In this document: positions 21,418-39,650 of the stretch, in pieces
How the letters are laid out: each line of letters begins with the position of its first letter
Position numbering within the stretch: position 1 is the stretch's first letter
NCBI GenBank assembly: GCA_905215675.1
Contig: CAJMRA010000001.1
Location: 1 to 39,972 of the forward strand
Reading direction: 5' to 3'
Length of the DNA: 39,972 nt
Origin: an uncultured bacterium
GTDB lineage: Bacteria; Desulfobacterota; Desulfovibrionia; Desulfovibrionales; Desulfovibrionaceae
Program-made: the position numbers and the translations under genes
Notes under the pieces: generated by a model
What the model saw: the letters and a program-made list of their open reading frames with translations, nothing else
Told to the model about the DNA's origin: nothing
The model's database searches: none

Positions 21418-21517
21418 TGATATAATCCTTTGTTATGTTTTCTTGAATATATATTCAAAATAGTTTTATTGTTTAGGAAGGATAGTTGATAGCACTGCTG
21501 TCTCCGGCATCGCACCT

Positions 21518-21799
21518 TCACGGCTGTGATACGTTTCGGATCAGAAAGTCGTAAAAGGGATTACCGCTGACAGACGTCTGATCGTGCTGTGCCCTTTCGC
21601 AGACTGAGGCATCGAACCACGGCGCGGGCTTGCGCCCTTCAGCGGCTCCATGACAGACATAGTGATAGATGGGATCCATGCCGGAATACAGGACGTCGGG
21701 ATTCTGTTTCAGATAGTATGGGGCGTCGAATTGTCCGCTTTGCGCAATGCGGCTGCAGATCGCAAGGATATCGGGCGACGGCGTTTCGGGGGCAGACAT
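21518..21799 (-). CDS. Stand-alone FD..YY...PDV...HY..HG..EGR-repeat protein, 93 aa
   Basis: FDAPYYLKQNPDV...HYVCHGAAEGRKPAPWFD, paralogous to the C-terminus of the 974-aa protein; AAGGAG RBS upstream. Confidence 0.7.
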   Translation of the reverse strand: MSAPETPSPDILAICSRIAQSGQFDAPYYLKQNPDVLYSGMDPIYHYVCHGAAEGRKPAPWFDASVCERAQHDQTSVSGNPFYDFLIRNVSQP

Positions 21800-24700
21800 G
21801 CTTCTTTCTCCTTCTCATGTTTTGCGTCGGCTTCCTGTTGCAGGCGTCGGGCGTAGTCTGTGACAAGGTAACGCAGATATGTACGCGAGCAGCTTAACTT
21901 TTTCAGGATATCATCAGTTAAAGGGGTTGGTTTGCCGGCTACGGCACAGGCTTTAATATACTGGAGCAAATTTTTTAGATGATGAGGTTTTCGGGCAAAA
22001 CGTTCCATGCCGATGGACTCCAGCAAATACATATCGGCATCAGAATTGAGGGCGACGCTTTGAATCATCGTGAAAAAGGCTGCGATATTATCAATTACTG
22101 CCATAAAGAAATCTTTTCCACGGTGATGGGGGCGCATGATGGAAGGATTTTTGGATTTTGTGACATGTGTATATGCTAACAGGTCAATATATTTTACTTT
22201 TGTTGCATGTCCATAGGCGCTCAGCAAAAAAAGTTCATCTCCATTGGCTTTTGTTGGATTAAATTGGCAGTGGCCGGACTCAAGCAATTCTTGTTTGAAG
22301 AGAATTGACCAGCAGGCATAAGTTGGAATTTTTTCCATGAGGTAGGCCTGCACGGCTTCCCGGCCTGTCAGAACGAGTCCATCCGGCATCTGTTTGCGGT
22401 AGAGCTCCTTGCCTGACAGGAGGTCCCATGCCCTATAGGTACAGACAAGCATATCAATAGATCCGTCCTGCTCCATATGCTGCAATGCCTGCTGAAAGAA
22501 TCCCGGCTCAAGCCAGTCGTCGCTGTCCACAAAGGTAATATATTTTCCGGCAGCGTGAGAGAAAACAAGATTGCGGGCCACAGACGGACCGCTTGATTGT
22601 GATGTCCTGAATAGTCTTATATTATTATGTTTTTGTGCATATGATTGGCAAATGGTAAATGTATAATCTGTAGAACAATCATCTATTAAAAGTATTTCAA
22701 TGTTTTCGATATTCTGTGCCAATATGGAGTCAAGACAAGATGAAATTGAGATTTCAGTATTGTATGCTGGTATAATAACGGAAAGGGCACAAGGGGATAT
22801 CGTCGATACGGAATTTTCATAGGGAATAAGAAATGTATCTGGACGTATAATATCCTTTGTCAGGGAGTCTCTATCTTCATTGGGTGATTGTTGTTTGATT
22901 GATATGTCGTCAATATAAAGACGCGCGTAATCCTCCAGCAGCAGGCGCAACAAATGCGGCGCCTGTTGCAGGTCTTCCATCATGGTGTCGGTTAAAGGCG
23001 ATATGGAGGTGTCCTGCAAGGAGGCCAGCCATGCACAGGCATCGCGAAAGTGATAAAAGATGCTTTTCAGACGCAATGGGATAAGGTCGTCACGTTTTTG
23101 CTGGAGGAGAAAATTTTCTGTTAACGCCGCAATATGGAGGCTCCCTGCGAAATGGCGTTCCGTCTTTTGCGGGGCCGTCATCGTGCTTGCAGGATGCGGG
23201 GTACGTATGTTGACATAATAATCCCCTTCCTCAATGAGAAATTTCCGGGCAAACCTATATACTTGCAATAGGAAGAAATTGTCTTCATAAAGACAGTGCG
23301 GCGATGTTATACCGTAATGATGTAAAAATTCTCTGCGATATATTTTGGACCATACAGCCCATGATTTGAGTTTCCCTTGACAATAGGCTTCCAGAAGTTC
23401 GTTTCCCTGATAGCAGCGCGGAGGCATATATGCATCATAGATCATACGGCCGGCAACGTCATGGCGGCGATAATTGAAATGCACGACATCGATATCCTTG
23501 AATTGCTCAAGGATACTGACGCCGCGCAGGAAAAAGTCCGCTTTGATATAGTCGTCGCTGTCCACATAGGCGATATAGGTTCCGCGCGCCAGTTCCTGCG
23601 CCCGATCCCGTGAATAGCCCTGTCCGCCGTTGCGTTCATTGCTGTAGACGCGCACGCGCGCATCCTGCGCCGCCAGAGCCTCGCAGACGCGCAGTGTGCT
23701 GTCCGTGGAGGCGTCGTCAATGACAATGATTTCCAGACGGCGCAGACTTTGCCCCAGAATGCTGCGCAGGCAGCGTTCAATATATTTTTCCTGATTGTAG
23801 ACAGGGACAATGGCCGTCACCAGCGGCTGTTCCGTGGCCTCGGGGAGGAATGCCTGTTTCCGGCGTTGCGGCAGTTCGGGCAGGATGCCCGCCGGGATGG
23901 AACCTCGGGCGCGACAGCGGGCGTAACCGATCAGCAGGGCCTTGATAAAGGCAGGATTGCTTTCCAGATCTGCCCAGTCCTGTTCCGTAAGGGCGACGTC
24001 GCCTGTAGCTTCCATATATGCCAGAAGAGGAGGCAACAGTCTGTTTTCTATGGAGTATGGCAGAGAAGGCTGCACTTCTGAAAAAAATTGTCTCTTTTTT
24101 ATTTTTGCACAGGCAGAGCGGATATGACGATAGGTAGAGTTGTCCGGCAGAATGATGGAATGCGGCACATGTACGACTGTATAGACGGAACCGCCGGGCA
24201 ATGTACGGATGCGAGAACTTTGCAACAGGACATCCATCATAAAATGCACGTCCTGATGATACACGCCGACGGCAAAACGGCACTGCTTTTTTTGCAGGAA
24301 AGCAGCGCGAAAGATTTTTCCCCAGGGCCCCCAGGGCATGGCGCTTTTATGGTATGCATAGAGAGCCTGTCTGCCGCCTGCACAGAGAGGATGGCAGGCG
24401 ATGCGCCGCACATCTCTTCCGTCAGAATCAACTTCGCGCACGTCATAGGCCAGCATGTCTGCTGCGGGATCGGTCTCCATATCCCGGCAGGCACGAGCAA
24501 AGAAACCGGCTTCCACGCGATCGTCGCTGTCCACAAAGGTCAGATAGCGGCCACGTGCCAGATCGATGCCGATATTGCGACAGACGCCCTGCAAACAGTT
24601 ATGCGCCATTCTGAACAGTCGGATGCGGCGATCGCTCCGGGCATAGTGTTGCAGCAACGTGTAGCTGTCGTCGGTGGAGGCGTCATCTATGACAAGCACC

Positions 24701-27700
24701 TCAAAGTCGGCCATGTCTTGACGCAGGATGCTGTTCAGGCAGGTGGCAAGCCAGGGGGCCTTGTTGTAGTTGGGCACGATGACGGACAGCAGCGGCGCAG
24801 CGCCCGTCGGATGCAGACTGTTGCCCCAGGCCGTGAAATCACGCGGCGGCAACAATTCGGTCGCGGCCTTGCGCCAGTCCCGATCCTCTGCGGCGACGCG
24901 GGGGGTCAGCCCTTCGCGCCAGCAGTACAGACGGGCATAGTCCGTGAGGATGCAGCGCAGAATTTCCCGGGATGAGGCAAAGGCGGCAAGATTTTTTTCG
25001 GAAAGGAGTTCGTCTGTCTTTCCCTGTTTGTCGACTTCCCCCAGCGTGTCGAATAGCCGTCGGCGATCCCAGTTGTAGAGGCGTTGCAGGCAGTACCGGT
25101 AGCCTTCATCCTCAAGGAACAGGCCGTTCTGCCGGAAGAAATTGGTCAGAAAGGCGGCAAAACGGGTAAAGGAGGTGAAATACGCCTCACTTGCTGGAGA
25201 GGAGGCGTTGGAGCCGGGACGCAGATAGCGGCAATAGCCGATGTCCGCTATGGCCAGCGTCTTGCGGGAAAAATAGAAGGCCTGCACGCTGAAGAACATA
25301 TCTTCATGCACGCGGGTATCGCTGTAGCGCACGGCATGATGGCGCAAATGATCGGCGCGATACAGGCGCGCATAGGTGGCGTAACCTCCGATATTCTGGA
25401 GCAGCAGTTGCCGCAGGGAATCCTTGCCGCTCCACGTGCCTTCGGTAATGCCCCAGCGTTCTTCCTGATGGTTCTTGTCATGGACGAGCATGTCGAAGCA
25501 GACGATATCCGCCTGTTCCGTTTCCATGAGCGCCATGCCGCGTTGCAGGAAGCCTTCCGCCAGCATGTCGTCGCTGTCGATGAAGGTCAGATAGCGCCCG
25601 CAGGCCCTGTCCATACCGGCATTGCGCGCCGGGCCTGCCCCCTTGTTTTCGTAAAAGCGCAGACTGCGGATGATATGCGGATAACGCCGCGCATATTCGG
25701 CGATGATGTCGGGCGTACTGTCGCTGGACGCGTCGTCCACAAGGATGATTTCCACATCCGGCACGCCCTGAATCAGCACGCTGTCCACACAGCGCCGCAG
25801 CGTATCTTCATTATTGTGTGCGGGGATGACGACGGAGACGGCGGGCTCCTTTTCCGCAACGGGGCGCAGCAGGGCCTGTGCCCGTTTCCAGGCCTTGTCC
25901 TGCGGCGGCAGGGCATAAAGGCAGGTTTCGTAATACCACCAGCCATGATGCCCTATATAAAGGGTATAATCGGGATGATGACGGAGCAGCCGGAGGGGAA
26001 TATCCAGATAGTGATCGGGATGGTGATACAGGGAAATCTGCAACTTGGGATAATCGCGGGCAATGGTGCCGGCCGCCCCCTCCAGACAGGCCATTTCCGC
26101 GCCTTCAATATCCAGCTTGATCAGGCTGCACCGTTCCAGCCTGTCCCGCAGGTAGCCGTCGATATCTATGGAACGGCATTCTTCCGTACGTTCGTTGGGC
26201 TGCGTCACCATGCGGCTGCCGCCGCCCTGATCCTCGATATAAAAGGTGGCGGCGCAGGACCAGAGTCCCAGCTGTTCGAGGGTAATCCGGGGATGCGCGC
26301 CGATTCTTTCCCGAATGGCATCACAGGCGGCCCGGCGGAGTTCAAACGCAAAGACTCGGCCTTGTTCGCCTGCGATTTCGGCAAAGGTTTTTGTGGTTTC
26401 GCCGTCATTCAAGCCGCCTTCAATAATGCTGTCTCTCGGCTCCGCATGCACCAGCGGATGCGCATATTGCGGATAGGCGGAGATGGGCAGATAGCCGGGA
26501 TCGCCGCTTTCCAGCGCTTTCATGGCCCGCAAAAAGACCTCGCGGCTTTCTTCGTCCGCAAGCGCCGCGTAGATGCGGACAATATCCGTAAACCGTTGCC
26601 GTACAATATGAGGCCGGGGAGGCCGCGCCTGCATGGGGCGCGCGACGGCGGCATCCAGCTGGACGCTTGTCAGTCCCGCGGCCGCGCAGAGCCGCAGCAA
26701 AGGCTGGATGCACCCCTGTTCCCAGAAGCGCCTGTCCGGTCGCGCATACAGGCAGAACCGCCGCTGCTCCAGCGTGTCGCGGGCGACAAGGGGCACTATG
26801 GAAACCTGCAGGCGCGCGGCGGTCTCCTCCCGGGCGGGATGGGGCGAGCCGTCCCAGTCGGCCAGTACAAAGGGCGGCAGGAAGGGCAGCGGCGGATCCT
26901 GCTGCCGGTAATGCCGCACGGCCTCTTCCAGCACGTCGCCGAAGGTGACGACGGCGGTCGTGACGGGGTCAATGCGCTCGACGGTCTCGCGCAGGGGGCG
27001 CAGTTCCTGAAAGTGCGCGCGGACAAGGGCGCGCATGTCCGGCTCTCCGGTGACAGGATTGATCAGGGAAGGAGCGTCGCAGGAGCGTTGCAGCGCCAGG
27101 TCGCGCCGTCGCTGTAATTCCGCTTCGGCCGTTTCGGCATCTTCGGCGGACGGCGGCAGGTTGCGCAACGGGCAGGCTTCCTCGTCGCAGCGGACGATGT
27201 GCGGCAGGGCGTTCCGTGCCTCCTCATCCATATCCCAGAGAAAACCGCGGTTGAGCCCGTACGCGCAGGATGATGTGTGACAGGAACCGTTGCAGTCAAT
27301 ATGGACATTCTGCACGCCGAGACAGCAGAAACGCTCTTCGCTGACGACGACGGGCGCGGACGTCGGGCCGGTTGCCGCAGGCCGGGCAAGGGGCCGCATG
27401 GGCAGGGGGGCGGCCTGCGCGGCGCGCGCGTCGAATTGGCGTTGCGCCGTTGCGCGCCATTGCCGCCGATCTTCGGGACAGGGGTATTCCTGCCCGTCCG
27501 TTGTCAGGACCGGAGCAATATCCAGGGCAAAGGGAAGAACGCGCCGCAATCCGCACAGGGCGGAAAAAAAGCGCTGCGCTTCCTGATGACGATCCGGGTG
27601 GTGCATGAGCCGTACATGCGCAAGTTGTCCGGCCTCGGCCACTGTGGCGACCACTTCCAGAACATGCTGCGGATCGGCATGTTCCAGATGTACGGAAAGA

Positions 27701-28038
27701 AGGACTTCCAGCCTTTGCGGGGCGGCGGCGTCCGCAAGGGAACGGTACAGGGCGAGAGGGGCGGAACCGTTGGTCTCCAGCGTGACGGCGATGTCGTAAC
27801 CCGTGGAGAAAAGATAGCGCGTCAGGTCCGGCAGCAGCGGATGCAGGGTAGGTTCCCCGCCTGTAAGGATAAAATGATAGGCCGCGTGCGGCATGGACAG
27901 GAGACGATAGGCGGAAAGCAGCAGACGATCCCGGACAAGAACGCAATTTTTCAGATCATGCTCCTGCCGACAGTAGGAACAGCCATAGTTGCAGGCGGAA
28001 ATAAGATTCCAGGTGATGGAAAGGGTATCGCTGTGCAT
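21709..28038 (-). CDS. Giant multidomain enzyme: radical SAM + Cys-rich (SPASM/twitch-like) + FkbM methyltransferase + four GT2 domains, 2109 aa
   Basis: CNYGCSYC, LTGGEPTLHP, ETNGS; CCLG..HIDCNG..SSC..CDEEAC; EGGLNDGET..FAFE..IKLDIEGAE..ISLYHH. Four GT-A starts (VSVVIPAHN, LSVIVPNYN, VTAIVPVYN, LSVIIPAYN), each followed by a (F/Y)(I/V)DSDD motif. Confidence 0.88.
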   Translation of the reverse strand: MHSDTLSITWNLISACNYGCSYCRQEHDLKNCVLVRDRLLLSAYRLLSMPHAAYHFILTGGEPTLHPLLPDLTRYLFSTGYDIAVTLETNGSAPLALYRSLADAAAPQRLEVLLSVHLEHADPQHVLEVVATVAEAGQLAHVRLMHHPDRHQEAQRFFSALCGLRRVLPFALDIAPVLTTDGQEYPCPEDRRQWRATAQRQFDARAAQAAPLPMRPLARPAATGPTSAPVVVSEERFCCLGVQNVHIDCNGSCHTSSCAYGLNRGFLWDMDEEARNALPHIVRCDEEACPLRNLPPSAEDAETAEAELQRRRDLALQRSCDAPSLINPVTGEPDMRALVRAHFQELRPLRETVERIDPVTTAVVTFGDVLEEAVRHYRQQDPPLPFLPPFVLADWDGSPHPAREETAARLQVSIVPLVARDTLEQRRFCLYARPDRRFWEQGCIQPLLRLCAAAGLTSVQLDAAVARPMQARPPRPHIVRQRFTDIVRIYAALADEESREVFLRAMKALESGDPGYLPISAYPQYAHPLVHAEPRDSIIEGGLNDGETTKTFAEIAGEQGRVFAFELRRAACDAIRERIGAHPRITLEQLGLWSCAATFYIEDQGGGSRMVTQPNERTEECRSIDIDGYLRDRLERCSLIKLDIEGAEMACLEGAAGTIARDYPKLQISLYHHPDHYLDIPLRLLRHHPDYTLYIGHHGWWYYETCLYALPPQDKAWKRAQALLRPVAEKEPAVSVVIPAHNNEDTLRRCVDSVLIQGVPDVEIILVDDASSDSTPDIIAEYARRYPHIIRSLRFYENKGAGPARNAGMDRACGRYLTFIDSDDMLAEGFLQRGMALMETEQADIVCFDMLVHDKNHQEERWGITEGTWSGKDSLRQLLLQNIGGYATYARLYRADHLRHHAVRYSDTRVHEDMFFSVQAFYFSRKTLAIADIGYCRYLRPGSNASSPASEAYFTSFTRFAAFLTNFFRQNGLFLEDEGYRYCLQRLYNWDRRRLFDTLGEVDKQGKTDELLSEKNLAAFASSREILRCILTDYARLYCWREGLTPRVAAEDRDWRKAATELLPPRDFTAWGNSLHPTGAAPLLSVIVPNYNKAPWLATCLNSILRQDMADFEVLVIDDASTDDSYTLLQHYARSDRRIRLFRMAHNCLQGVCRNIGIDLARGRYLTFVDSDDRVEAGFFARACRDMETDPAADMLAYDVREVDSDGRDVRRIACHPLCAGGRQALYAYHKSAMPWGPWGKIFRAAFLQKKQCRFAVGVYHQDVHFMMDVLLQSSRIRTLPGGSVYTVVHVPHSIILPDNSTYRHIRSACAKIKKRQFFSEVQPSLPYSIENRLLPPLLAYMEATGDVALTEQDWADLESNPAFIKALLIGYARCRARGSIPAGILPELPQRRKQAFLPEATEQPLVTAIVPVYNQEKYIERCLRSILGQSLRRLEIIVIDDASTDSTLRVCEALAAQDARVRVYSNERNGGQGYSRDRAQELARGTYIAYVDSDDYIKADFFLRGVSILEQFKDIDVVHFNYRRHDVAGRMIYDAYMPPRCYQGNELLEAYCQGKLKSWAVWSKIYRREFLHHYGITSPHCLYEDNFFLLQVYRFARKFLIEEGDYYVNIRTPHPASTMTAPQKTERHFAGSLHIAALTENFLLQQKRDDLIPLRLKSIFYHFRDACAWLASLQDTSISPLTDTMMEDLQQAPHLLRLLLEDYARLYIDDISIKQQSPNEDRDSLTKDIIRPDTFLIPYENSVSTISPCALSVIIPAYNTEISISSCLDSILAQNIENIEILLIDDCSTDYTFTICQSYAQKHNNIRLFRTSQSSGPSVARNLVFSHAAGKYITFVDSDDWLEPGFFQQALQHMEQDGSIDMLVCTYRAWDLLSGKELYRKQMPDGLVLTGREAVQAYLMEKIPTYACWSILFKQELLESGHCQFNPTKANGDELFLLSAYGHATKVKYIDLLAYTHVTKSKNPSIMRPHHRGKDFFMAVIDNIAAFFTMIQSVALNSDADMYLLESIGMERFARKPHHLKNLLQYIKACAVAGKPTPLTDDILKKLSCSRTYLRYLVTDYARRLQQEADAKHEKEKEACLPPKRRRPISLRSAAALRKADNSTPHTI

Positions 28039-36618: not shown

Positions 36619-37752
36619 TTATTCGGTAAAGGCTTCGATGATGTAGTTCTCGCCGTTGCTGCCCAGAAGCTGCACGGTCTGTTCGTTGGTGGCGACTTCG
36701 TAGGCGACCTGTTCGCGATCGAGCTCGCCGCTTTCGAGGGCGGCGATCCACGCGGCGCCGTCCACGCTGATGCCGGCGTTGCTGATCAGGGTGTTGACGT
36801 AATCGGCATTGCCCATGCCGTCGTACTTCTGATGGAACTCGTCGCAGTTGAGGAACGAACGCACCAGATGTTCGGTACTGCCGTCGGTGGCGCCCTTTTC
36901 AAACTCGTTCATCCACCAGTTGAGACCGCCCAGGGTGCTGTTGTCCCAGCCGTCCGCGCCGTCGATGGCTTCGCGGCCCAGGGCCACTTTGTACAGGGTG
37001 GCCACAAGGCTGTCGTGGGCGTTTTCGGCAATGACGGTAATGCTGTCGTCGGCGGTGATCACGCCGTCCTTGTTGGTGTCGAAGGTCACGACCTGCACGC
37101 CCTTCATGGTGATGGCGTTATCGCTGTGCATCACGACGTTGCCGTTTTCGATGGTAAAGGAGTGCGCCGCGCGACTATCCTGCAAGGTGAGCTGATCGAA
37201 GCCGTCGCCCGCATCAATGGTGGCCACGCCCACATTGGTATCCAGCTTGACGGTCATGTTGCCGGAACCGCCGGTGATGTGGCTTTGTCCGTCGCCCTGC
37301 AACAGCACCGTATCGTTGCCTTCGCCGGTGTTGACCGTGGCGTTGCCCGCCTTGAGCACAATCTGATCGTTGCCGCCGGCAGTGGCGATGGTGCTTTCGC
37401 CGCCGGTGGTTTCAACAGAGATGTTTTTGTCGGCGGCAAAGGTCACATTATTGTTGCCGCTGCCGAGTACCATAGCGGAAATGGCGGAATCGGCCGCAAA
37501 ATTCACATTGGCGCTGGTATTGCCTTCCATCACGACGACCTGCGCGCCGAGATCGGAGGTCACGTCGGCAGAGGCGGAAACGGCCTGCGTTCCTTCGACG
37601 ACGGGACCGGTACCGTCATAGCCGGATACGGTTACGTCCGTGGTTTCCGCGCCCAGCAGGGCAGAAATGGCATCTTTGGTCGTCTGGCTCAGTCCACTCC
37701 ACTTGTCATCAATCAATGCGGAGGTGGACATCTGTTGTTCATATGAGGCCAT
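36619..37752 (-). CDS. Putative S-layer/surface protein: acidic, Thr/Gly/Asp-rich, RTX-like repeats, C-terminal DUF4214, 377 aa
   Basis: GGGAGG RBS; no signal peptide. Repeats GSGNNNV, AGGNDQI, GEGNDTV, GDGFDQL; DUF4214-like LYKVALGRE...GLNWW...SFLNCDEF..KY...DYVNTL. Confidence 0.75.
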   Translation of the reverse strand: MASYEQQMSTSALIDDKWSGLSQTTKDAISALLGAETTDVTVSGYDGTGPVVEGTQAVSASADVTSDLGAQVVVMEGNTSANVNFAADSAISAMVLGSGNNNVTFAADKNISVETTGGESTIATAGGNDQIVLKAGNATVNTGEGNDTVLLQGDGQSHITGGSGNMTVKLDTNVGVATIDAGDGFDQLTLQDSRAAHSFTIENGNVVMHSDNAITMKGVQVVTFDTNKDGVITADDSITVIAENAHDSLVATLYKVALGREAIDGADGWDNSTLGGLNWWMNEFEKGATDGSTEHLVRSFLNCDEFHQKYDGMGNADYVNTLISNAGISVDGAAWIAALESGELDREQVAYEVATNEQTVQLLGSNGENYIIEAFTE

Positions 37753-37955
37753 ATGGTTCCTCCCGAGATGAGGCTTGCGCCGGTTGCCTGCGGTTGTGAG
37801 CAGAGAGGCCGCCCGGCGCTGGTTCGGTTCAGGCATCTTTCAGGAAACAGGCCGGACAGGAAATTCGGCAAGCGGGAGCCGGGACCGAATGCCTGTCTTC
37901 CGGAAGCGCACGTTGCCGCCGACATTTTCCGAAAAGGGCCAATCCCGAAGATGAG

Positions 37956-37981
37956 TCTTGAAATCGTCAGTTATTTCAAGA
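37956..37981. promoter_or_regulatory. Perfect inverted repeat (9-8-9); candidate operator or accessory site
   Basis: TCTTGAAAT-cgtcagtt-ATTTCAAGA, 22 bp from the left recombination site. Confidence 0.45.
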
Positions 37982-38003
37982 GGGTTATTCCGTCGGCTTC
38001 CAA

Positions 38004-38023
38004 TTGACAGACGTACTGTCGAT
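38004..38023. promoter_or_regulatory. Putative recombination site IRL of an invertible promoter
   Basis: TTGACAG-ACGTA-CTGTCGAT; the central 15 bp are the exact reverse complement of 38167-38181. Confidence 0.8.
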
Positions 38024-38122
38024 TGGCGGCAACGCGAAAAAAGACAAGAAATTTTATTTCTTCATAATTTATGGATTTTTTTAACAAAAAAACAAATATA
38101 AAAATTTTTTATGATCGAGGTA

Positions 38123-38151
38123 TTGTAAATTTTCAGGCTGGAAAGTATGAT
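38123..38151 (+). promoter_or_regulatory. Sigma70-type promoter inside the putative invertible segment, pointing away from the operon
   Basis: TTGTAA (38123-38128), a 17-nt spacer, TATGAT (38146-38151); A/T tracts upstream resemble an UP element. Confidence 0.75.
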
Positions 38152-38164
38152 TAGTCCGTATCTG

Positions 38165-38184
38165 TTGACAGTACGTCTGTCGAT
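38165..38184. promoter_or_regulatory. Putative recombination site IRR of an invertible promoter
   Basis: TTGACAG-TACGT-CTGTCGAT: the same arms as IRL with the core inverted. Confidence 0.8.
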
Positions 38185-38275
38185 GAATGGCGTAATGAAA
38201 GATGAAAGAGGAGAAACATTTTGTATTGCTTTTTAGATAGTTAGCTCTGTTTTTTCTGTGAGCGTACATATCGCG

Positions 38276-38320
38276 TCTTTTCAAATCCTCATGCGTTTTG
38301 TGAGCATGATCTTGAAAAGA
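38276..38320. terminator. Imperfect hairpin between the switch and the recombinase 3' end
   Basis: TCTTTTCAA...CTCA...TGAG...TTGAAAAGA. Confidence 0.4.
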
Positions 38321-38402
38321 TACACTATTTCTCATATTGAGCTGTGTTCTGGTTCTCTCGGCGTCAGGCTGTCGCGGTTCCGGGCACAGCTCTTTTTTTG
38401 CG

Positions 38403-39428
38403 TTAGGTTTCTTCAGGCACGTGTGCCGGCGTTCCTCTGGCGAGCGCTCCGGCGAGGGGCAGGTTCTGCGGGCGGGCGCGTGTTTTTCCGTGCGGGCGCA
38501 GCTGCGACAGCAGGCCGCTTACCGTTTCCGCCGCAAGAAGAAGGGATGTCTGCCCCAGGTGCGCATAACGCATGGTGGTACGCGGATCGCTGTGCCCGAG
38601 GAGCTTTTGTACTTCGTAGAGGGAGTGACCGGCGTTGACCAGAAAGCTGGCAAAACTATGCCGCAAATCATGAATCCGCACATCGTCCAGCCCCAGGGAA
38701 CGCCGTAGCGTATTCCAGAAGAGAAAGATGTCGGACAGCGGTTTGCCCGGAGCATGCCCGGGGAAGAGCCAGGGATTGTCCCCGGCGCGCGGTATGGCCC
38801 GGATGACGGCCATGGCCGCGTCAGATAACGGAATATGTCTGGGTTTGCCGGATTTGGATACGGGAATGGTCAGCAGGCGCAGATCCAGTCGTATGTTTTC
38901 CCAGCGCAGCCTGAGGATCTCGTTCTTCCGCGCCCCGGTCAGCAGAAGAAGGCGCAGCACCAGCGCTTCCTGTCTTCGGGAGCGCCGCAGGGCGTCCATA
39001 AGACGCCGGGCTTCCGATCGGGAAAGATATCTTTCCCGTTGTTCATGTATTTTGAAGGGGGCGACATGCGCGCAGGGAGAGGCGGGCACCATGTCGTGAA
39101 CGGCGGCCAGCGAACAAATACTCTTGAGGACGGCAAGAATCCTGTTGCAGGTCGCCGGGGCCAGCCCCCGCGAAGGCAGGGATTGCAGCCAGGTCTCCAC
39201 ATCCATACGGGATATGTCCGCGAGAGGACGATCGCCGAACATCGGCGAAAGGTGCTGGCGGGCAATACGTTCGTCCACGTGCCAGCTCCGCTTGCGTGAT
39301 TGAACATGCGGCAAATAGATGCGGGAGACGAAGGCATCGAGAGTGAGGCCGCCGGATGCCTTGCGTCTGCCGCTTCGCCGCCTGTGCGGGGATACCGCCG
39401 GGAGGGGAACCGGATAAAAGAGGGCCAT
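38403..39428 (-). CDS. Tyrosine recombinase (site-specific integrase/invertase), 341 aa
   Basis: Complete catalytic set: TGARKNE (R), SKSG (K), HDLRH (HxxR), LLGH (H), RYAH (Y). N-terminal core-binding domain; AGGAG RBS before the ATG at 39428. Confidence 0.93.
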   Translation of the reverse strand: MALFYPVPLPAVSPHRRRSGRRKASGGLTLDAFVSRIYLPHVQSRKRSWHVDERIARQHLSPMFGDRPLADISRMDVETWLQSLPSRGLAPATCNRILAVLKSICSLAAVHDMVPASPCAHVAPFKIHEQRERYLSRSEARRLMDALRRSRRQEALVLRLLLLTGARKNEILRLRWENIRLDLRLLTIPVSKSGKPRHIPLSDAAMAVIRAIPRAGDNPWLFPGHAPGKPLSDIFLFWNTLRRSLGLDDVRIHDLRHSFASFLVNAGHSLYEVQKLLGHSDPRTTMRYAHLGQTSLLLAAETVSGLLSQLRPHGKTRARPQNLPLAGALARGTPAHVPEET

Positions 39429-39650
39429 GCGCTTTGCTCCTGAAAAAACGGTGAATGCCGATATCGCCTGTACGGGGTCCGTCGGGATTGACGGCGGGCG
39501 CACAGGAGATTGCGACAGTGTATCACGGTTTCATCTGCGGAATGCACGACCTGCAGGTCTTATATTTTTTTATATAAATTAGTATGTTTGCGATGGTTTG
39601 CCGCACTACGGCGCGGCGCGAGCGGGCGGTTCCGGGACGGTCGAAAAGTC

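Follow-up and report, generated by a model that had tools for sequence, protein, structure and literature searches.

The DNA analysed here, which we call the window, is the 39,972-nt contig CAJMRA010000001.1 of an uncultured member of the Desulfovibrionaceae (assembly GCA_905215675.1). It is the entire largest contig of a metagenome-assembled genome (MAG) of 423 contigs and 2.48 Mb with a GC content of 0.63. Near its right-hand end a gene-free segment of 146 bp lies between a tyrosine recombinase gene and a long minus-strand array of genes for a probably surface-located protein and for the synthesis and export of glycan. This segment almost certainly inverts, and it is present in the opposite sense between unchanged flanks in a contig from a public gut metagenome. 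We consider it very likely that the segment is an invertible promoter that turns the array, referred to below as the operon, ON and OFF. An earlier note on this DNA had proposed such a phase-variation switch; the recombinase gene was not mentioned in it.

The segment is bounded by two 20-nt sites that are separated by 141 nt (Table 1). Their cores, ACGTA on the operon side and TACGT on the recombinase side, are exact reverse complements; the site positions and the core relationship had been given exactly in the earlier note. In a repeat listing the pair appears both as a direct 20-nt family, whose identity is held to 75% by the differing central 5 nt, and as an inverted repeat of 18 nt that is 94% complementary and has its arms 146 nt apart. 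Inverted identity is exact over the 15-mer GACAGACGTACTGTC, found at 38006-38020 on the plus strand and at 38167-38181 on the minus strand with 146 bp between the copies. The pattern GACAG-N5-CTGTC occurs twice in the window, where 0.02 occurrences are expected and none of 100 shuffles gave two. There are four such sites in the whole assembly, the other two being singletons on other contigs. The GC content over 37900-38399 is 0.32-0.41, against 0.57-0.66 around it and the genome-wide 0.63.

Inversion was seen in public sequence data. A search found part of the stretch in 20 public runs, all of them animal gut or faecal metagenomes according to their records. The four runs with the best match (X1-X4), all of which are assembled contigs, were mapped on 37000-39400. 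Record 3 of X1 (3101 nt, depth 31) aligns with 37066-38020 and 38167-39400 on the minus strand and with 38021-38166 on the plus strand; it bridges both junctions, with the segment inverted between the two unchanged flanks. The joints map to 38020/38021 and 38166/38167. At each joint 15 letters fit either side, which matches the length of the 15-bp inverted core. Compared with the window this contig has 72 mismatches and 11 gaps in the first gene of the operon, but just 2 mismatches in the segment and 5 in the recombinase region. It comes from a different strain. It follows from this contig alone that inversion has happened in nature at precisely these sites.

Junctions of both orientations are found within each of the runs X2 and X4. 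In X2, record 7 (210 nt) has the segment inverted and running into 49 nt of the left flank, and record 6 (64 nt, 37972-38035) has the orientation of the window. Record 8 of X2 and record 19 of X4 have, directly before 38167, a 15-nt loose end that reads as 38021-38035 reverse-complemented; the earlier note had predicted this right-hand ON junction. The 15-nt length of these extensions is presumably what a 31-word assembly graph gives at a branch. Records 17 and 18 of X4 are pieces in window orientation that cross each site. Run X3 has no contig over 37961-38382 and is hence uninformative on orientation. A DNA search with 37700-38500 in 40 relatives gave no homologous intergenic region, only one 40-nt match, and therefore orientation is not comparable at an orthologous locus of reference genomes.

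The adjacent recombinase is the presumed invertase of the segment. Its gene reads toward the switch and shares a strand with the operon downstream; 218 nt separate its end from the right-hand site. The probable start is an ATG at 39428, within the longest reading frame. In addition to the phage integrase domain (PF00589) the protein carries N-terminal SAM-like domains, and alignment to archaeal XerA shows the full catalytic set, with canonical TGxR, HxLRH, LGH and Y motifs. Its best relatives of solved structure are XerA, XerC-like and XerD proteins. XerA, XerD and XerC are also the best-scoring families, each below its equivalog cut-off (112.9 against 220, 99.5 against 329.6 and 97.3 against 335, respectively), and in our view the likeness of the protein to Xer is limited to the fold and the catalytic core. 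Against the Fim-type invertase model (NCBIfam NF007370, 'tyrosine-type DNA invertase') it scores 27.2 bits, where 221 would be needed for membership. No recombinase other than this tyrosine recombinase was found at the locus, which sets the switch apart from serine invertase systems of the Hin/Gin/Mpi type. The genome of the window has one copy of the recombinase.

The segment contains a sigma-70-like promoter motif, TTGTAA-N17-TATGAT, which lies about 15 nt inside one end of the segment and has a -35 hexamer that begins 43 nt from the segment end. The motif points away from the minus-strand operon, as the earlier note had read it, and toward the 3' end of the recombinase gene. A simple promoter scan of 37500-38700 gave no minus-strand site of comparable quality, and an exact 29-nt scan of metagenome contigs with the promoter of the window gave no matches. 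Read from promoter geometry, the segment was probably captured in the OFF state. After inversion, transcription is predicted to begin on the minus strand near 38029, which would leave about 275 nt to the ATG of the first gene.

These features fit a phase-variation switch of the invertible-promoter type. The Xer-like recombinase would bind both sites, each of which would consist of two inverted arms of roughly 9 bp (in the family consensus, CAT-YGACAG and CTGTCR-ATG) around a 5-nt core. The core is always asymmetric because its length is odd, and recombination would invert 38021-38166 because the two cores are exact reverse complements. With the segment oriented as in the window, transcription from the promoter would run against the recombinase gene from its 3' end, and the operon would be OFF or expressed at a basal level. 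In the other orientation it would fire across the operon-side site and the leader into the RTX/DUF4214 gene and the glycan genes, which would be ON. The motif would then be the promoter of the operon, and the orientation of the segment would set expression.

Table 1. Features of the switch and its neighbourhood in the window (positions are those of the forward strand).
Feature	Position	Strand	Sequence	Remarks
Glycan synthesis and export array	30-36751	-		Co-directional; roughly 37 kb with the first cargo gene
First cargo gene	36619-37754	-		Calcium-binding (RTX-like) repeat protein with C-terminal DUF4214; weak matches
Untranslated leader	37755-38003	-		249 nt from switch to first operon gene; ATG at 37754-37752 preceded by GGGAGGA
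Operon-side site	38004-38023		TTGACAGACGTACTGTCGAT	Distal to recombinase; arms TTGACAG / CTGTCGAT, asymmetric core ACGTA
Invertible segment	38021-38166			146 bp; GC about 0.27-0.33; inverted between unchanged flanks in public contigs
Second, weaker promoter-like site	38041-38068	+	AAGACA-N16-CATAAT	Inside segment; not conserved in relatives
Predicted sigma-70-like promoter	38123-38151	+	TTGTAA-N17-TATGAT	9/12 consensus matches
Recombinase-side site	38165-38184		TTGACAGTACGTCTGTCGAT	Arms as in operon-side site, core TACGT
AT-rich spacer	38185-38402			218 nt from recombinase stop codon to switch
Tyrosine recombinase gene	38403-39503	-		Longest reading frame 366 aa, GTG start; PF00589 at 1.1e-32

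The recombinase is one of a family. A protein search of contigs from one genome per species gave 51 loci, 38 of them with 55-74% identity. Nearly all of the 38 are labelled Desulfovibrio, Mailhella, Bilophila, Lawsonia or Desulfovibrionaceae in their record titles, and several loci per genome are common among them. In an even draw of 300 genomes of the bacterial family a homologue was present in 26 (E <= 1e-70). With the genome of the window included, carriers are found in 12 of 72 genera and have 1-4 copies per genome.

The sites are conserved along with the recombinase. We scanned the 1.2 kb after each recombinase gene with the permissive pattern NCAG-N5-CTGN. A pair of sites with the consensus CAT-YGACAG-N5-CTGTCR-ATG follows the recombinase in 26 of the 38 loci, with the two sites about 130-195 nt apart and the pair 48-265 nt past the stop codon in the loci where the stop could be placed. 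The segments between the sites are AT-rich, most of them with a GC content of 0.26-0.43. In the 26 loci and the window there are 14 different 5-nt cores, and without exception the two cores of a pair are exact reverse complements.

The same relationship was found by a pattern scan of the same collection for two CGACAG-N5-CTGTC sites 130-160 nt apart, in which the cores were left unconstrained. The scan gave 55 stretches. In 30 the cores are reverse-complementary, and all 30 are in Desulfovibrionaceae-type records and have AT-rich segments (GC 0.21-0.52). Complementary cores are present in none of the 23 stretches from other groups, where the cores are identical or unrelated; these come from Bacteroidota, Lactococcus, actinomycetes, a haloarchaeon and others, with a GC content of at least 0.39, and of at least 0.5 in all but two. 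The remaining two of the 55 were not re-found by the first regular expression: L074 (Alistipes) is a direct repeat and L085 has no site in either scan. Thirteen of the 30 complementary pairs are loci known through the recombinase and 17 are new, and together the two sets comprise 44 distinct switches (the 26 loci, the window and 17 new pairs), which use 22 distinct cores. Some genomes carry one core twice (e.g. L009/L022 and L084/L110). Tyrosine recombinases are known to require identity between partner sites in the crossover region, and the matched-core pattern is what selection for continued inversion should produce. The claim that these are tyrosine recombinase sites and that the segment flips is thus supported by the inverted contigs, the adjacent recombinase and the covariation of cores in relatives.

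A promoter motif is found at a fixed position in the related segments. The strand directed at the recombinase carries TTGCCA-N17-TATTGA or close variants. For counting we used a rule in which TTG starts the -35 hexamer, the spacer is 17 nt, TA starts the -10 hexamer and the -35 hexamer begins 42-45 nt from the segment end. By this rule 23 of the 27 segments carry the motif and four do not; in shuffled segments 0.8% of ends satisfy it. The motif faces the recombinase in 20 (the window included) and the cargo in three (L017, L021 and L036). When reverse-complemented, L017 and L021 align with the majority over their full length, and the window aligns as it stands. Positional conservation and alignment together imply that the promoter is a fixed part of the mobile segment and is so positioned that it would fire out across the adjacent site. 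On this alignment, homologous switches have been captured in both states in public assemblies. A sigma-54 promoter reading of the conserved TGGCA was considered and rejected: the GG-N10-GC spacing is absent, and TTGCCA-N17-TATTGA on the reverse strand is preferred.

The cargo behind the switch varies between relatives. A Pfam scan of the first same-strand gene after the switch in 20 relatives gave GT2 glycosyltransferases (three), KpsF-like isomerases with SIS and CBS domains (three), a protein with CBS domains only (one) and flagellins (two). An autotransporter with PMP repeats, a methyl-accepting chemoreceptor, a radical SAM protein, a KAS III enzyme and a Type ISP restriction-modification enzyme occur once each. 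In the other six there is no Pfam match, and several of these genes are very large. The classes found are those usually under phase variation. The two flagellin genes are full-length and lie directly behind the switches of two Desulfovibrionaceae genomes (L025:1789-3276 and L026:5549-7171).

Some relatives depart from the two-site, one-recombinase arrangement. In three switches (L009:1937-2170, L022:5150-5385 and L084:1784-2020) the far side has an additional site, identical in core, 44-45 nt past the first, and in L044:3137-3355 a second near-side site lies 39 nt after the first. A third site would allow alternative inversion boundaries, or excision between directly repeated sites. Two orphan switches, L070:3024-3211 and L077:3638-3827, are on one contig of a Bilophila-labelled MAG and have no recombinase homologue within at least 3 kb. 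The same MAG has at least seven site pairs with six cores (L018/L104, L070, L077, L081, L093, L094 and L107). These findings suggest action in trans, with the core as address. Several homologues in related genomes with one or two in-frame stop codons each (G227:C30, G098:C4, G070:C8, G087:C104, G309:C105 and G288:C22) suggest decayed copies of the recombinase beside intact ones.

Several observations weigh against the switch as we have described it. The run evidence consists of assembled contigs and not of raw reads. The evidence for mixtures in X2 and X4 extends 15 nt past the repeat, and each mixture may come from two strains living side by side, one locked in either orientation. The ON and OFF states are assigned from a consensus-type match (9/12) to a promoter in AT-rich DNA, and the operon may have further promoters, there being a 290-nt gap at 21418-21708. 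In the permissive scan 12 of the 38 recombinase loci have no regular site pair; these include loci at a contig edge (L029, and L034, which has its second site in L086) and loci with an inverted repeat with variant arms (L010 and L033), and the scan gave nothing in the others. Some related switches, L070 and L077, have no recombinase within 3 kb. Finally, 20 of the 23 positional promoters face the recombinase, which fits a switch that is mostly OFF but fits equally well a primary role in that direction, for example antisense control of the recombinase.

This last point leads to the rival explanation that survives best, which we nevertheless consider unlikely. Inversion would be real and the operon would not be its main target; in the common orientation the promoter would read antisense into the convergent recombinase gene, where it would set the switching rate or act by read-through or termination, and the operon would be driven from elsewhere. 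The excess of promoters that face the 3' end of the recombinase gene speaks for this, as do the constant convergence of the recombinase gene on the switch and the conserved GGAC-type repeats between recombinase and switch in several relatives. It does not account for the cargo side, which always opens with a same-strand gene 30-460 nt past the switch, of classes typical of phase variation, nor for the three loci in which a promoter at the same distance from the segment end faces the cargo. Where a switch has no adjacent recombinase, an antisense transcript would have no target, and in the window no minus-strand promoter-like site that could drive the operon was seen in 37500-38700.

A very improbable reading is that the recombinase is the integrase of a mobile element or island, the repeats are its attachment or terminal sites and the inverted contigs are assembly artefacts. 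The name of the Pfam domain, 'Phage integrase', and the position of the gene near the contig end beside AT-rich DNA would agree with this. The sites, on the other hand, bound only 146 bp without a gene, and the same cassette precedes unrelated chromosomal cargo in many genomes. The repeat of 15 bp is also shorter than the 31-letter index words, so that a word-based assembler should not miscross it, and the X1 contig spans both junctions within 3.1 kb at a depth of 31. The reading that the sites are paired operators of a dimeric repressor without inversion, which had been the fallback of the earlier note and which would suit two near-palindromic sites flanking a promoter region, is hardly credible, since inverted-segment contigs from at least two independent runs already contradict it, operators have no need for reverse-complementary cores that covary over 56 site pairs (26 and 30 counted separately, 13 of them twice), the adjoining gene is a recombinase with no regulator gene adjacent, and the motif pair occurs nowhere else in the genome.

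Among these explanations the invertible promoter is the one that we prefer, and a larger scheme can be drawn from it tentatively. It is possible, and in our view rather doubtful, that gut Desulfovibrionaceae possess a 'switchboard' in which one clade of Xer-like recombinases, with 1-4 copies per genome, would serve all switches, including the orphans in trans. The 9-bp arms would be common to all and the 5-nt core would be the address, by which a switch would recombine with its own partner alone; at least seven independent promoter switches could then coexist in one genome. In the OFF state the promoter would read antisense into the recombinase gene, and this feedback would explain why assemblies are mostly OFF. 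If this were true, flagellin, capsule, adhesin, chemoreceptor, restriction enzyme and glycan operons would be varied without scrambling of the chromosome.

Invertible promoters are well known as a class, and to that extent the switch is not new. The fimB-fimE-fimS-fimA system of Escherichia coli too has a short invertible segment with the promoter of a surface operon, short inverted repeats, the order recombinase, switch, cargo, and a recombinase gene transcribed toward the switch. It differs from the present locus in several respects. Here there is one recombinase gene and not two, and by its NF007370 score it is of a non-Fim type. The segment has 146 bp, where that of fim has about 314 bp. 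Each site is a full palindrome of arm, core and arm that spans about 23 bp, and the cargo is an array for glycan and an RTX protein.

Tyrosine site-specific recombinases of Bacteroides fragilis reportedly invert the local promoters of outer-surface protein genes, in work by Weinacht et al. of 2004. The likeness is in several paralogous tyrosine recombinases per genome, each by its own invertible promoter, in the surface molecules controlled and in the gut habitat. The phylum, the site sequence and the promoter consensus are different, the promoter here being the sigma-70-like TTGCCA-N17-TATTGA and not of the Bacteroides type. A further parallel is with the heterospecific lox variants of Cre/loxP, in which the arms are identical, the central spacer decides which sites are partners and the asymmetry of the spacer sets inversion or deletion. 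Those variants were engineered from a phage system whose sites are 13-8-13, whereas the present sites are natural and about 9-5-9. By this analogy we hypothesise that different cores insulate the switches within one genome.

The main text of PMC11892184 describes an 'inverton group 139' of Clostridia with an adjacent tyrosine recombinase 'invertase group 35'. As presented there, this is also a read-supported family of invertible segments from gut bacteria with a shared repeat motif, and a statistical link ties it to a family of adjacent tyrosine recombinases. It belongs to other taxa, Clostridia and Bacteroidia. Words that begin with 'Desulfo' or 'Bilophila' are absent from the main text; the supplementary tables may list such strains. 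The IntDes tyrosine recombinases, according to their description in PMC8138268, are found in Desulfovibrio only and have no assigned function. They have an arm-binding domain, a shifted first arginine and a tyrosine in place of the first catalytic histidine. They resemble the present family in belonging to the same bacterial group and in being tyrosine recombinases without an assigned role. The window recombinase does not fit this published description; it has canonical TGxR and HxLRH motifs (...TGARKNE... and ...HDLRHSF...). A deep-learning survey (PMC11602134) gives predicted invertons in Desulfobacterota at phylum level only.

Literature on Desulfovibrio and Desulfovibrionaceae, part of it represented by titles and the openings of abstracts, yielded no such switch; the PhaseFinder survey may list loci. 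Within the literature searched, the suggestion in the earlier note that a switch of this kind had not been described for the group still stands; as a general class it was never novel. The sites, the promoter and the recombinase in gut Desulfovibrionaceae form a well-defined family that is apparently undescribed.

Desulfovibrio, Bilophila and their relatives are sulfide-producing gut bacteria that have been linked repeatedly to inflammation. Should DNA inversion control whether their surface glycans, flagellins, adhesins and restriction systems are ON or OFF, a single genome sequence would be silent on which antigens are displayed, isolates of one strain could differ in behaviour, and metagenomes could be scored for switch state by a simple site motif. 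The flagellins of these bacteria are under study as immune stimuli, as stated in PMC13653922, the main text of which has no occurrence of phase variation, inversion or recombinase. The switch-linked flagellins bear on current work on Desulfovibrio flagellin and TLR5. Fixed arms with a free but matched core would also be a compact natural example of how many recombination switches can coexist in one genome, and the site family offers candidate parts for orthogonal genetic switches.

The operon behind the switch begins with a gene whose longest reading frame extends to 37836. The matches of its product to DUF4214 (8.5e-5) and to the SMc04171-type calcium-binding repeat (1.5e-7) are weak and both under the curated cut-offs; the protein is probably secreted or located at the surface. 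A search of Rfam gave no family in the leader before this gene, the single match (CncR1, 17.6 bits against a cut-off of 76) being sub-threshold and at chance level.

From this gene the minus-strand array runs nearly uninterrupted to the start of the contig. It includes glycosyltransferases of the GT2, GT4 and GT1 families, a fucosyltransferase-methyltransferase, Gmd, an epimerase like GDP-fucose synthase, and ManC. For export there are parts of a Wzm/Wzt ABC exporter and an HlyD-type protein with an ABC ATPase and ABC-2 permeases. One reading frame (21709-28038, minus strand) encodes 2109 aa, in which a radical SAM domain, an FkbM-type methyltransferase and four GT2 domains are fused. The label 'surface protein-glycan operon' given previously is fair in view of the RTX-like gene and the glycan array. 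From strand and spacing, we infer that the array could be one transcription unit.

It had also been pointed out that a flip would give both sites symmetric arms, and that this could bias the direction of switching. The arithmetic is right for the window (TTGACAG/CTGTCAA and ATCGACAG/CTGTCGAT), but the bias is not supported as a general rule. By our reading, in 12 of the 20 loci with a recombinase-facing promoter, the window being among the 20, the recombinase-side site is already symmetric, and arm symmetry is for this reason no tracker of switch state across the family. The arm pattern of the window is thus peculiar to this locus.

The spacer between recombinase and switch has repeats in some relatives. 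Conserved YGGAC(A/G)T-like repeats with a spacing of about 10-11 nt are present just outside the recombinase-side site in L011, L013, L014, L015, L025 and L042, and are possibly accessory binding sites; the spacer of the window does not contain them. A small opposite-strand reading frame that would start at the 'ATG' by the recombinase-side site was rejected: the triplet belongs to the palindromic arm, a ribosome-binding site is lacking and the similarity is absent in the window spacer. An 84-aa reading frame at 38081-38335 (minus strand), which crosses the right-hand site, has no Pfam match, and we take it for a chance product of the AT-rich sequence. Positions 38031-38044 inside the segment and 38391-38404 in the region of the recombinase stop codon form an inverted repeat of 14 nt (93% complementary); it may be due to chance in runs of A and T, or may allow orientation-dependent pairing.

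The pattern scan also revealed a different repeated element in environmental MAGs labelled Bacteroidota and in one labelled 'bacterium' (L065, L066, L072, L082, L088, L098, L100, L101 and L111). It consists of two CGACAG-N5-CTGTC palindromes 149-151 nt apart, with AT-rich cores that are not complementary and a GC content of about 0.5. This element, which is unrelated to the Desulfovibrionaceae switch, is present in six copies in one MAG and in three in another.

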